Part shown: piece after piece, positions 1,146 to 14,410 of the stretch | Position numbering within the stretch: the stretch's first letter is position 1 | How the letters are laid out: every line of letters starts with the position of its first letter | NCBI GenBank assembly: GCA_042218325.1 | Contig: JBDGRE010000030.1 | Span: 1-39,569, forward strand | DNA from: Candidatus Nanohaloarchaea archaeon | GTDB lineage: Archaea > Nanohalarchaeota > Nanosalinia > Nanosalinales > Nanosalinaceae | Length of the DNA: 39,569 bases | Direction of reading: 5' to 3' | Notes under the pieces: model-generated | Seen by the model: only the letters and a program-made list of their open reading frames with translations | The model's database searches: none | What the model was told of the DNA's origin: nothing | Translations under genes and position numbers: made by a program

Positions 1146-1240
1146 CTAAACAAAACTAAACACCTCCACGCCTCAGCCGAACCCTCTTAGACGCTTTCTG
1201 AACGCCTTTGAACAGTCTTTCACGCGTTCGGGATATAAGG
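1146..1240 (+). promoter_or_regulatory. promoter with helically phased YYNAAC-like direct repeats and TATA box
   Basis: Hexamers at 1146, 1156, 1177, 1187, 1198, 1208, 1218; TATAAGG at 1234; same layout as 11879-11973. Confidence 0.75.
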
Positions 1241-1273: not shown

Positions 1274-1543
1274 ATGAAGAAAGCACTACTTGCGCTTGCT
1301 GCGATAGGGCTTGTGGCAGGAGCTGTAGCACTGCCCTCTCAGGCCGCCGACCAAGTGCCGGACATGGCTTCCCCGGGCGGCCAGGTGCAGATCGACTCTC
1401 CAGGTGAGAGTTCGGACGCGATGAACAGCGGTGCGCCCGCGGAGTTCCCGGGCGGGGCCGAGTTCTCGGGCCCTCCTTCGTTCGTGAAGGATCTGCTGCC
1501 GCAGCAGGCGGTGCAAAAAGTTCCGGGCTGGCTTTTCGGTTAG
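1274..1543 (+). CDS. small secreted protein with C-terminal amphipathic GPPSFV...LFG tail
   Basis: GGTGA SD at 1262, ATG 1274; signal peptide MKKALLALAAIGLVAGAVA. Confidence 0.8.
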   Translation: MKKALLALAAIGLVAGAVALPSQAADQVPDMASPGGQVQIDSPGESSDAMNSGAPAEFPGGAEFSGPPSFVKDLLPQQAVQKVPGWLFG

Positions 1544-10501: not shown

Positions 10502-10560
10502 AATAGTTTGAACCGGGCACCTGCTTCTTAAGCATCGCTCCAGCATTCGTGGATACAGCC

Positions 10561-11094
10561 ATGAGACGACTACTGATAGCATTCGCTGTCGCCGCGTTCG
10601 TGGCGGCGGGAGCTGCACAGCCTTCGGGTGCCGGGCCTAACATGGCCGGTGGTCCTGACTCTGCCCGACAGGGTCAGGTGACTACCATGGGCAACCAGTC
10701 CGGGAACCAGACAGGCAACGAGACCCGCGGAAACGTTTCCCGTGGTCCCGGCCGTAGCGCGCAGTTTGATGCTAGGCTTATGACCGCTATCAACACGGTT
10801 GACGCGCTGACAAAAATCGCTCCGAACGACGACGTTGAGCAGCGACTCGAGAGAGCTCTGGAGATCCTGCGCAACGTGAAGGAGGACACTGATACGGCCA
10901 GCCTCGGACCTGATAACGAGACAAGTGATGAAGACACCGGAGAAAGAGGGCCGCCCGCTGACAGAGGTCCTGGACAGCAGGGGCCTCCTGAAGACGCAGG
11001 TTCTTCCGGCCAGCAGGGACCACAGAACCGTGGACGCCAGGGCGGCGGACCACCTGGATTCGTCCGGCGCATGCTCGGCGGCCTGTTCGGCTAG
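10561..11094 (+). CDS. secreted Gly/Pro/Gln-rich protein with C-terminal GPPGFV...LFG tail
   Basis: Signal peptide MRRLLIAFAVAAFVAAGAAQP; GPP/GPQ repeats. Confidence 0.82.
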   Translation: MRRLLIAFAVAAFVAAGAAQPSGAGPNMAGGPDSARQGQVTTMGNQSGNQTGNETRGNVSRGPGRSAQFDARLMTAINTVDALTKIAPNDDVEQRLERALEILRNVKEDTDTASLGPDNETSDEDTGERGPPADRGPGQQGPPEDAGSSGQQGPQNRGRQGGGPPGFVRRMLGGLFG

Positions 11095-11836: not shown

Positions 11837-11878
11837 GGTGAAAGTAGCGCAGGGATCAGATAAAATACAACCGAGGTA

Positions 11879-11973
11879 TTAAACGGAACTGAACGAGTTC
11901 TTCCGAGAGTTAAACGCTATTGAACAAGAATTCAACCGCTTTGAACGTTCTTTCACGGATACGCCATATAAGG
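11879..11973 (+). promoter_or_regulatory. promoter with helically phased YTNAAC-like direct repeats and TATA box
   Basis: Hexamers at 11879, 11889, 11910, 11920, 11931, 11941, 11951; TATAAGG at 11967; ATG 12001. Confidence 0.78.
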
Positions 11974-12000
11974 GTCGTTTCTCTATCTCGGGGTAAAACG

Positions 12001-12888
12001 ATGAAATCGACACACGCGACGACGGCATTCGCAGCGGCGCTATTGTTCGCAGGATTTATTTCACCTGCAGCAGCGCAACCCACGAACGCACAGGCGCAGG
12101 TAGATGCGCAGGCCTCCGCACAGGCCGAAAGTAACAGTTTTGGACAGATAATGAGCCAGCTCCAGTCCCTCCAGGAGCGGCTGACAATTATAGAGAACAG
12201 GCTCTCCAGCCTCGAAGCACAGGTAAACGCCCAGGGCGAGGCAGAGGCTGAAGCCTCGCAGAACGGGCAGAGAGGCCCTCCAGAGCACGCCGGCCCCGAG
12301 AACCGCGGTAAGCCTGAAGACGCCCGGGGAGCGAACGGCGCAGAGGTCAACCACTCCGTAACGGTCGAGGACGGCAAGAAGACTATCGGGCACGAGGTCA
12401 CGAAGAACGGCGACACCCTCGTCAGCTTCGTGAAAGAGATCTTCGTCGGACCAAAGGCTTCCGCAAACGCAGAGGCAGAGAGCGACTCCGACAGCCAGGT
12501 CACCGGCGACGAGAGCGAGGAAGGGCTCGACCTCGAGTTCACGTCCAACGTTTCACAGGGCGAGAACGCCACCATCAACGTCACGGAAAACAGCGAGGCG
12601 GTCGCCAACGCCACAGTCACAGTCAACGGAGAATTAGTCGGCCAGACAGATGCCAGCGGGACAGCCACTTTCACGGTCCCCAACGAAGAGAAGGTGAAAG
12701 TCAAGGTCGAGAAGGGCGACCACACCGCCGAGCTCGAGGTAGAGTTCGAGTCAGAAGCAGAGACCGGCAGCAGTGAAGCAAACGAGACCGGGGCAGAGAC
12801 AGAGTCCAGCGCCTCGGCAGAGGCGAACAGTTCAAACTCCGGAGCAGAGGCCGAAGCGGAGCTTTCCGCAGAGGCAAGCCTCCAGTAG
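12001..12888 (+). CDS. secreted/surface protein (coiled coil, Ig-like beta domain, acidic Ala/Ser/Glu tail)
   Basis: Signal peptide ending AAAQP; VANATVTVNGELVGQTDASG beta-sandwich pattern; several NxS/T sequons. Confidence 0.85.
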   Translation: MKSTHATTAFAAALLFAGFISPAAAQPTNAQAQVDAQASAQAESNSFGQIMSQLQSLQERLTIIENRLSSLEAQVNAQGEAEAEASQNGQRGPPEHAGPENRGKPEDARGANGAEVNHSVTVEDGKKTIGHEVTKNGDTLVSFVKEIFVGPKASANAEAESDSDSQVTGDESEEGLDLEFTSNVSQGENATINVTENSEAVANATVTVNGELVGQTDASGTATFTVPNEEKVKVKVEKGDHTAELEVEFESEAETGSSEANETGAETESSASAEANSSNSGAEAEAELSAEASLQ

Positions 12889-13103: not shown

Positions 13104-13171
13104 AACCCTCCTCTCCGTTCCCCCTCCTTGAACGAGTTTAAAACGATAAGATGGACAAAAGGATGATAGAT

Positions 13172-13981
13172 ATGACCAAACTACACGCCATAATCGCGAT
13201 AACAGCGCTGCTGTCAGGAACCGCAGCGGCCCAGCCGGCCGATGTTCCGGCTGCGGGCATGACGCCCGGCGACCTGTTCTACGGGCTGGAGAGAGCCTCC
13301 GAGGCCCTGGAGCTCGCGGTGGCCTCCGCACCGGTTATCGGCAGTGATGAACTTGCGGCGAAAGTAAGGGCGAACCACGCCGCGGAGAGGCTGTCCGAGG
13401 CCCGGAAACTCGCGGAGAAGAACAAAACAGAGAAGGTCGAGCAGCTGATGGATCAGTACAGCAGGGGCATGAACCGGTCGGTCCAGGCCGCGAAGAGGTC
13501 CGGGAAGCCCGAGTTCGTCTCACGGCTCAAGAACGTCTCCAGCAACCAGGTAAAGGTGCTTGAACAGGTCAAACAGCAGGTTCCTGGACCCGCGAAGAAG
13601 GGTATCGAGAACGCCATCGAGAACAGCCGGAAGAACCAGGAAGAACTCGAGCTACCCGAACAGGCCCGGAAAAGGCCCGGAACCGAGAAGGGCAACAGCG
13701 ATGAAAGCCAGGGGAGAGGTGAGGTCAATATCTCCGTTGGAGACAAACCCTCGACCGGAAACCCTGGAAAGGGAAGACACGAGCCCGGCGAGCAGCCTGG
13801 AAATCCTCCAGAGCCGGGGAAGCCGGACGAAAGCGGGGCGACCAAGGGCTCCACGGGAACCGGGCAGGTCCCTGACGAGGTCAACAACTCGGCTTCAGCC
13901 GCCAGTAACGCCAGCCCTGGACAGGACGCGCAGCAAACCCCCAGGATAGCGGAAAACGCAAGCTTCTCCGGGCTGCAGTAG
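13172..13981 (+). CDS. secreted DUF5667-like protein with Pro/Gly-rich tail
   Basis: Signal peptide ending AAAQP; AGMTPGDLFYGLERASE...AAERLSEA motif. Confidence 0.8.
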   Translation: MTKLHAIIAITALLSGTAAAQPADVPAAGMTPGDLFYGLERASEALELAVASAPVIGSDELAAKVRANHAAERLSEARKLAEKNKTEKVEQLMDQYSRGMNRSVQAAKRSGKPEFVSRLKNVSSNQVKVLEQVKQQVPGPAKKGIENAIENSRKNQEELELPEQARKRPGTEKGNSDESQGRGEVNISVGDKPSTGNPGKGRHEPGEQPGNPPEPGKPDESGATKGSTGTGQVPDEVNNSASAASNASPGQDAQQTPRIAENASFSGLQ

Positions 13982-14038
13982 GACTGTTGCAGCCCCCTGA
14001 TACGCTCTTTTTTATTTTTACAGCAGGAAAGAGCCTCT

Positions 14039-14410
14039 ATGGCAGTCCCGTTTCCCGAGGCACAGCTCGAAGCACTCATCTACATGGCCCTGGGAGCCCT
14101 GCTATCTCTTACTATCGTGCTCGGGGTGTACGCCCAGAGGCTGAAGAAGCGGCTGGAAGGCACGGACGAGGAACCCGGGATCAGAATCGACCGGATGGGG
14201 CTGTCTCTACGCGCGGAGGAAGTACTGGAAACGGTAATGGAAGAACCGATGCTGCAGAGTGAACTCCCGAGCGAGCTCAAGGTATCGAAGGCGACCATCA
14301 GCAACGCTGTCTCGGAGCTTTTCGAGCGGAACCTTGTGAGGAAGAAAAAGAAGGCCAACACTTATCTCATCGAGCCGCGGATGGACAAGATAGAAGAGCA
14401 GGCCCGGTAG
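14039..14410 (+). CDS. membrane-anchored winged-HTH transcriptional regulator (COG2512-like)
   Basis: N-terminal TM helix; LQSELPSELKVSKATISNAVSELFERNLVRKKK..NTYLI wHTH. Confidence 0.85.
   Translation: MAVPFPEAQLEALIYMALGALLSLTIVLGVYAQRLKKRLEGTDEEPGIRIDRMGLSLRAEEVLETVMEEPMLQSELPSELKVSKATISNAVSELFERNLVRKKKKANTYLIEPRMDKIEEQAR

Follow-up and report, generated by a model that had tools for sequence, protein, structure and literature searches.

A helically phased promoter array of secreted-protein genes in one nanohaloarchaeal family and its candidate membrane-bound winged-helix regulator

ToxR/ToxS of Vibrio cholerae and CadC of Escherichia coli are membrane-bound one-component activators with a tethered winged helix. 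The parts of PMC7496328 that deal with ToxR describe a membrane winged-helix protein whose ompU site consists of direct repeats TNAAA-N5-TNAAT at -51 to -37, and whose adjacent partner is ToxS. In Sulfolobus acidocaldarius, according to the sections of PMC6396743 devoted to them, ArnR and ArnR1 are membrane-bound helix-turn-helix (HTH) regulators of surface-structure genes with boxes at -43 to -84; ArnR has its HTH at the N-terminus and two transmembrane helices at the C-terminus, together with HAMP and sensor domains, and its boxes are two inverted repeats, TCGAC-N5-GTCGA. Here we describe, on a 39,569-nt stretch of DNA from Candidatus Nanohaloarchaea archaeon (contig JBDGRE010000030.1, the whole of which is called the window), two promoters of secreted-protein genes that carry an array of seven helically phased hexamers, together with a candidate regulator that combines one transmembrane helix with a winged-helix domain.

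On the DNA side, two further archaeal elements invite comparison. The upstream activating sequence (UAS) of GvpE at haloarchaeal gas-vesicle promoters, in the portion of PMC2241852 concerned with it, reads TGAAACGG-n4-TGAACCAA (consensus YGAAAYGA) and abuts the transcription factor B (TFB) recognition element (BRE), with a spacing critical for activation. Compared by DNA element alone, the array is likewise a direct repeat of a similar word upstream of the BRE, its unit being T(T/G)AAAC(G), but the GvpE UAS has two units with a 12-nt period and the array seven with a 10-11-nt period. To our knowledge, GvpE is not a winged-helix protein. The EarA sites of the Methanococcus maripaludis fla promoter, as covered in PMC6396743, are four copies of TACATA needed to activate a surface-structure operon. 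They resemble the array in being several 6-bp words upstream of a promoter, and differ from it in the word itself. EarA is a soluble protein, and we know of no report of strict helical phasing over 80 bp for its sites. Given that the GvpE UAS and the ArnR boxes lie upstream of the BRE and TATA box, the array position fits archaeal activator sites. Our literature search, with supplementary tables outside its range, found nothing on the array, the regulator protein or DUF5667, nor any published work on nanohaloarchaeal promoters or regulators.

The window is contig C24 of a 1,072,872-bp genome (35 contigs, 55% G+C). It was compared with a family set of 50 genomes from 21 genera and with another sample of 16 genomes from four other families of the order. 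All evidence is comparative sequence from metagenome-assembled genomes, in which contig ends and possible mis-binning touch a few counts; the genomes compared are kin and non-independent, and array counts describe conservation and are no statistical test. The elements of the two promoters are as follows.

11879-11956, plus strand: array A, seven hexamers (nhmmer E=2.9e-22), TTAAAC at 11879, CTGAAC at 11889, TTAAAC at 11910, TTGAAC at 11920, TTCAAC at 11931, TTGAAC at 11941 and TTTCAC at 11951
11967-11973, plus strand: TATA-like box A, TATAAGG, 16 bp beyond the first base of the last hexamer, with the ATG a further 34 bp on, at 12001
1146-1223, plus strand: array B, seven hexamers at the offsets of array A (nhmmer E=2e-17), CTAAAC at 1146, CTAAAC at 1156, CCGAAC at 1177, TTAGAC at 1187, CTGAAC at 1198, TTGAAC at 1208 and TTTCAC at 1218
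1234-1240, plus strand: TATA-like box B, TATAAGG, with the ATG at 1274

With arrays A and B aligned to each other on their TTTCAC anchor, the hexamers lie at -72, -62, -41, -31, -20, -10 and 0 in both; a preliminary description had given these offsets, and every coordinate proved exact. Direct reading confirmed TATAAGG at +16 in both promoters and bore out the remark that most spacers differ, as A and B are identical at only 13/36 spacer positions compared with 33/42 hexamer positions. The consensus unit is T-N-A-A-C, often followed by G, and the units are direct repeats every 10-11 bp, with successive steps of 10, 21, 10, 11, 10 and 10 bp and a 15-nt unconserved gap between units 2 and 3. Counting one skipped turn, the mean is 10.3 bp per turn, at which the phases of the seven units agree to within 0.06 of a turn. 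The 10-11-bp steps and the single helical turn skipped between units 2 and 3 place all units on one DNA face. The distance from the array end to the TATA-like box is 10 bp.

Such arrays are rare in this genome. TTGAACNNTCTTTCAC and TTTCAC-N10-TATAAGG are each confined to the A and B sites in the whole genome, and four of the seven genome-wide copies of YTRAAC-N4-YTRAAC (both strands) lie inside arrays A and B. In a leave-one-out scan, for which the hexamer matrix of one array was summed over the seven offsets on both genome strands, the A-derived matrix scored B at 43.2 bits and the B-derived matrix scored A at 50.4 bits. Both scans ranked the same two sites next, C23(-)26101 with 31-33 bits and C16(+)929 with 28-30; the remaining rows, at 21 bits or less, were mostly shifted copies of the four arrays, and the best unrelated locus reached 18.4 bits. 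Concordantly, a 100-column profile run with nhmmer --max found four genomic sites at E<=1.1e-15, the next match having E=1. The resemblance between A and B is far beyond chance, and the possibility raised in the preliminary description that phased arrays might be common in other promoters was not borne out, with four in the genome against a background of E>=1. The two additional arrays lie outside the window.

26077-26174 of contig C23, minus strand: full array
857-953 of contig C16, plus strand: full array

The target of the C23 array is a DUF5667-like gene that is seemingly frameshifted past the signal peptide, DUF5667-like residues continuing in another frame, and that of the C16 array is a 54-aa remnant ending shortly after PGSFLYPLD. 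Either these two copies are decaying or there are assembly errors at both places. No arrays were found upstream of the other genes of the window's cluster, at 10549, 13151 and 14039.

Conservation was followed outward from P0001, the product of the gene behind array A. Relatives at E<=0.001 occur in 9/40 related genomes, the seven best being 34-52% identical. When the upstream DNA of six of them was read, five (G017, G002, G005, G018 and G007) carried the array with its register unchanged; the sixth, G023, was excluded because no credible start codon could be placed. Lack of conservation upstream of orthologues, which the preliminary description had named as speaking against its proposal, was therefore not what we observed, as arrays are kept before orthologues in other genera despite this protein divergence. 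Nine promoters from six genomes aligned gap-free over 100 bp and formed the training alignment of R1, a sequence-only 100-column profile. At E<=0.01, R1 matched in 9/41 relatives and in 19/50 family genomes; R1 arrays were found in 0/16 genomes of the four other families. Taking an R1 match at E<1e-8 as a strong array, we counted 20 strong arrays in 16/50 family genomes and 9/21 genera, 11/20 of them outside the training set.

Across these arrays the spacing is maintained to the base pair. In the 19 of 20 strong arrays that were compared, the genomic span equals the model span, without net indels over ~95 bp. Per column, hexamers carry 1.32 bits of information, spacers 0.59 and the gap that follows unit 2 has 0.45. 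Averaged over 190 pairwise comparisons, hexamer columns are 72% identical and spacers 43%. At most positions of units 1-6, the T and C of T-N-A-A-C occur in 17-20 of 20 arrays, the T of unit 5 in 15/20. Departures are a unit displaced by 1 bp in G022 (by eye) and a shortened four-unit array in G044. Conservation of hexamers above spacers and the absence of net indels across genera support selection on a spaced array rather than recent duplication, in line with the preliminary description. From these comparisons we consider the array very probably a selected cis-regulatory element of a secreted-protein regulon in one nanohaloarchaeal family.

That the arrays are a neutral leftover of promoter duplication, or a structured RNA, is extremely improbable. 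Arrays A and B do lie 10.7 kb apart in one genome, as a duplication could leave them, but the divergence of their spacers relative to their hexamers and the recurrence of the same architecture before four unrelated gene families in 16 genomes speak against this origin. The RNA alternative was rejected: no Rfam family matched, and folding z-scores ranged from -1.33 to +0.32 for both arrays on both strands. The promoter of G055 (G055:C70:5387-5484, locus L064) shows an uneven pattern when compared with window positions 11877-11976, the proximal columns being identical at 32/32 and the distal ones at 44/68 with the hexamers in register. Its P0001 gene is 92% identical to that of this genome although G055 sits in another genus; such a pattern points to mis-binning of the contig or to recombination with a breakpoint within the array.

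A-rich steps with a 10.3-bp period over ~80 bp resemble curvature or nucleosome-positioning signals, and the phased AA/AAC steps might act without a dedicated factor, as an intrinsic bend or by positioning an archaeal histone or chromatin particle upstream of the promoter. We hold this to be very unlikely. The T and C of the unit are nearly invariant, though curvature needs neither, the A-runs are just 2-3 long, and there are only four genomic sites, which track one regulator gene. The phasing leads us to infer a protein oligomer on one helical face, as the preliminary description had proposed.

The genes directly behind arrays A and B encode the following proteins.

12001-12888, plus strand: regulated gene 1, P0001, 295 aa, with a signal peptide, a coiled-coil-like stretch, an RGPPE motif, an Ig-like domain and an acidic tail
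1274-1543, plus strand: regulated gene 2, P0002, 89 aa, with a signal peptide and a C-terminal GPPSFV...VPGWLFG motif

Both open reading frames (ORFs) have signal-peptide-like N-termini, which agrees with the secreted products previously assigned to them; signal peptides were called by eye from the N-termini here and throughout. The Ig-like domain of P0001 matches Fn3_arc at 27.6 bits, below the cut-off of 28.9, and an Atlas look-up gave archaeal Ig-like surface proteins with a best feature score of 0.80, which we take as a lead only. Pfam and NCBIfam searches of P0001, P0002 and the small C16 and C23 ORFs returned nothing above cut-off. Orthologues of P0002 in G001, G022 and G055 are likewise preceded by an array. 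All four arrays of the genome precede ORFs with signal-peptide-like starts. Across the family, every one of the 20 strong arrays is followed by an ORF; counted from the first base of the TATA-like box, the distance to its earliest possible start codon is 21-43 nt. Of these target ORFs, 19/20 begin in a signal-peptide-like manner. The exception is in G057, where the first ORF has no such start but a P0001-like coding sequence comes next. The targets fall into four sets that are unrelated to one another.

P0001-like proteins (coiled-coil stretch and Ig-like domain): 11 arrays
P0002-like proteins (small, with C-terminal GPPxFV...VPxxxFG): 4 arrays
DUF5667-like proteins: 3 arrays
Acidic secreted proteins related to the product of 10549-11094: 2 arrays

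The last set takes its name from a neighbouring gene of the window.

10549-11094, plus strand: secreted protein, 181 aa, with RGPP and C-terminal GPPGFV...LFG motifs in common with P0002

This gene is without its own array here; its relatives in G064 and G065 sit behind one. Many of the target proteins have an RGPPE-like motif. The proline motif RGPPE/GPPE is common to P0001, the 10549 protein and their orthologues, and C-terminal GPPxFV...VPxxxFG recurs in the P0002 and 10549 families; no family models covering either motif were found.

Most start codons read are preceded by the Shine-Dalgarno-like word GGTGA. TTTAAAA-type boxes stand 35-45 nt ahead of this genome's tRNA genes, which makes it plausible on sequence grounds to read T(T/A)TAAGG as a somewhat weaker TATA box.

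Two kb downstream of array A lies the gene of the candidate regulator, and directly upstream of it a gene whose product belongs to DUF5667. A paralogue of the regulator is encoded next to the C23 array.

14039-14410, plus strand: candidate regulator, 123 aa, in which one transmembrane helix and an acidic linker join a short, conserved N-terminal stub, MAVPFPEA, to a C-terminal winged helix-turn-helix
13151-13981, plus strand: DUF5667 protein that starts with a signal peptide or an anchor (PF18915; E=3.6e-16 at 59.8 bits, the cut-off being 27)
26247-26603 of contig C23: regulator paralogue, 42% identical, divergent from the C23 array with 73 bp between

The structural model of the regulator (predicted local distance difference test, pLDDT, 83.5) places a helix at residues 6-40 and a winged helix-turn-helix at 57-122, joined by a disordered acidic linker. 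The hydrophobic stretch has acidic residues before it and RLKKR after it, so that by the positive-inside rule the N-terminus would be outside and the winged helix cytoplasmic. All Pfam neighbours stayed below cut-off, namely HVO_A0261_N (30.0 bits against 35), DUF7343 (23.5 against 27.6), the MarR family (PF01047 / PF12802; MarR 22.2 against 24.6, MarR_2 23.3 against 27) and TrmB, and Pfam gave no OmpR-type (Trans_reg_C) match at E<=0.1. The best Foldseek matches were MarR, ArsR and Lrs14 folds at E about 1e-3; Atlas feature neighbours were DUF7343/MarR clusters at 0.91, again a lead only. Searched against 1.84 billion representative proteins, the regulator profile matched 13 clusters at E<=1e-10, 11 of them full-length at E<1e-27, so that the immediate family is a narrow one. 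Beyond these, scores fell to generic winged-helix matches, among them some longer archaeal proteins with a hydrophobic helix before the winged helix.

Set beside ToxR, the locus shows similar boxes at the sequence level, direct repeats one turn apart (here T-N-A-A-C-N5 in 10-11-bp steps), as well as envelope or secreted targets and a partner encoded alongside, ToxS there and, putatively, the DUF5667 protein here. ToxR has an N-terminal OmpR-type winged helix, whereas that of the regulator is C-terminal (57-122) and MarR/DUF7343-like; ToxR has a C-terminal periplasmic sensor, whereas the regulator has an N-terminal helix with ~5-10 residues outside and no extracytoplasmic domain; and ToxR sites have two to a few units, whereas the array has seven and belongs to a genome with archaeal (TATA/BRE) transcription machinery. 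We regard the likeness between regulator and ToxR as an analogy of working only, without common ancestry. ArnR resembles the regulator in its archaeal origin, in the membrane location predicted for the latter and in sites upstream of BRE and TATA box; it differs in that the regulator has a single helix, at the N-terminus, lacks a sensor domain and would act on seven direct repeats. Among Pfam and Foldseek neighbours, MarR, DUF7343 and HVO_A0261_N come closest to the DNA-binding domain, but in the regulator a transmembrane helix replaces the MarR dimerisation helices, and its proposed sites are direct repeats rather than palindromes. The locus is a member of none of the ToxR/CadC, ArnR, classical MarR and GvpE UAS systems, from which it differs in domain order or type, sensor, symmetry and period.

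The regulator is connected to the array by its distribution and gene order. With presence defined as a profile match at E<=1e-10, the regulator occurs in 18/50 family genomes, and 15/16 strong-array genomes have it. Neither regulator nor strong array is present in 31/50 genomes, three of which have weak R1 matches only. Regulator gene and array are no more than 2.1 kb apart in 16/18 regulator genomes, in three arrangements.

Regulator directly upstream, its stop codon abutting or overlapping unit 1: G002, G007, G018, G054, G057 and G050
Regulator 0.4-2.1 kb downstream: G000, G001, G005, G017, G022, G061, G064 and G065
Regulator divergent at 51-73 bp: G016, G044 and G000-C23

In G044 the regulator lies 51 bp from the four-unit array, on the opposite strand. 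That array proximity is kept in three arrangements indicates a linkage that outlasts rearrangement. The DUF5667 gene directly precedes the regulator gene in 12 genomes, with G001 and G022 as exceptions, and at the three divergent loci it is the array's own target. The module of array, regulator and DUF5667 gene is patchy within genera (e.g. 1/4, 2/5 and 3/6 genomes) and was not found in three single-contig genomes that are 96-99% complete. It thus behaves as an accessory module and not as a core one.

From these observations we propose that the membrane winged-helix protein probably binds the array. It is unlikely that the array, though real, is bound by a different soluble transcription factor or a specialised TFB or TATA-binding protein (TBP), with the membrane winged-helix gene as a passenger of the cluster. 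Such a factor is favoured by array B and the C16 array, which lie far from any copy of the regulator gene, and by the habit of MarR-like folds of binding palindromes as dimers; moreover, co-occurrence and synteny make up the whole of the link to the regulator. Against a passenger speak the short distance kept in three arrangements, the many genomes lacking both array and regulator, and the finding that the mismatches, in G055, G008 and G009, all lie at contig ends; in the latter two the regulator gene is cut at or beside the contig end. Furthermore, no second DNA-binding gene was seen conserved in the cluster.

If the regulator does bind, the winged-helix domains of the 14039-14410 product would dock on the units head to tail, one domain per unit. 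The domains would approach the DNA from the membrane side, and tethering, by limiting their reach to one side, would enforce the strict phasing. Bound protein just upstream of the BRE and TATA box could help TBP and TFB to load at a sub-optimal box and so activate transcription. The adjacent DUF5667 protein might serve as an extracytoplasmic partner of the regulator, a speculation by analogy with ToxS. We give about even chances to the composite picture, a phased upstream activating array bound on one helical face by tandem membrane-tethered winged-helix domains.

Given binding, activation seems somewhat the more probable outcome. The opposite, a repressor or silencer in which a winged-helix filament spreads from the array over BRE and TATA box or ties the promoter to the membrane until a signal arrives, is in our judgement distinctly unlikely, although several features suit it. 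The last unit ends 10 bp before the TATA-like box and therefore abuts or overlaps the BRE, and most MarR and ArsR relatives from the Foldseek search are repressors. In addition, some orthologues have a palindrome near the last unit: at the orthologous loci L004, L005 and L007 the near-perfect CGTTTC-TG-GAAACG stands between unit 7 and the TATA-like box, where this genome reads TTTCACGGATACG. On the other hand, about 70 of the 80 bp lie upstream of the BRE, a region in which archaeal repressor sites are uncommon. The A-run of T(T/A)TAAGG is shorter than in the tRNA TTTAAAA boxes and suits an activator-dependent promoter, a weak argument.

Several observations weigh against activation by tandem tethered domains. 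The position of the array is the sole ground for choosing activator over repressor. The nearest folds, MarR, ArsR and Lrs14, are usually dimers on palindromes and not tandem monomers. The last unit (TTTCAC, GTTTCT or GTTCAC) deviates from the consensus, and the orthologue palindrome at this unit may be a separate dimer operator overlapping the BRE. The regulator is almost devoid of an extracellular part, so that a route for sensing is hard to see. Linkage is not universal, as 12.8 kb separate array B from the regulator gene and the C16 array is on a different contig; co-occurrence and linkage could merely reflect inheritance of one gene cluster. In G055, which is 75% complete, arrays but no regulator were found, on a contig that stops 424 bp past the array. 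Finally, among the sequencing runs listed as carrying the locus there were no RNA runs, only five DNA rows from salt-lake metagenome runs.

Further features were noted around the arrays and the cluster. The 10-mer ATAAAATACA stands upstream of both arrays, at 1090-1099 (46 bp from unit 1 of B) and at 11860-11869 (9 bp from unit 1 of A); it has four copies in the genome, two of them in the window compared with 0.03 expected, and the copy near B overlaps the start codon of the divergent ORF 462-1091. Upstream of the DUF5667 gene, at 13129-13144, a lone TTGAAC precedes a TTTAAAA box by 3 nt; it may be a one-unit version of the array element or a chance occurrence. The real start of this gene is likely the methionine of MTKLH, ~34 nt after the TTTAAAA box. 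Between the DUF5667 and regulator genes, at 13975-14025, a GC-rich hairpin (GCTGCAG...CTGCAGC-like) is followed by a T-rich run, and this element might serve as a terminator, as the TATA-like box of a leaderless regulator transcript, or as both. A mobile element or island was rejected as an explanation of the cluster, whose neighbours are the housekeeping genes for photolyase, PolB, ArgRS and a PilB-like ATPase. An Rfam search of the whole window gave two matches and nothing besides.

1-313: 3' end of an archaeal large-subunit (LSU) rRNA, 273.9 bits, cut at the contig start
25032-25117, minus strand: tRNA, tRNA-Pro according to aragorn

Nanohaloarchaea are small-genome DPANN archaea living on haloarchaeal hosts. 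For this group, the analysis supplies a 100-bp cis-element, a four-promoter secreted or surface regulon in this genome, and one 123-aa candidate regulator with its partner gene. If the membrane tether is true, archaea would have a counterpart of ToxR-type signalling that is assembled from other parts, and the helical phasing of binding sites would have a physical reason. A doubtful further extension is that up to seven tethered domains dock the promoter flat on the membrane, where transcription, translation and secretion would be coupled at one spot, and that the DUF5667 protein, acting on the conserved extracellular stub, reports envelope state or host contact in the manner of ToxS or of an anti-sigma partner. 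Were this so, it would represent a minimal transmembrane signalling device in a DPANN symbiont with few other regulators. With surface proteins of a symbiont as its targets, the system may be relevant to attachment to the host.

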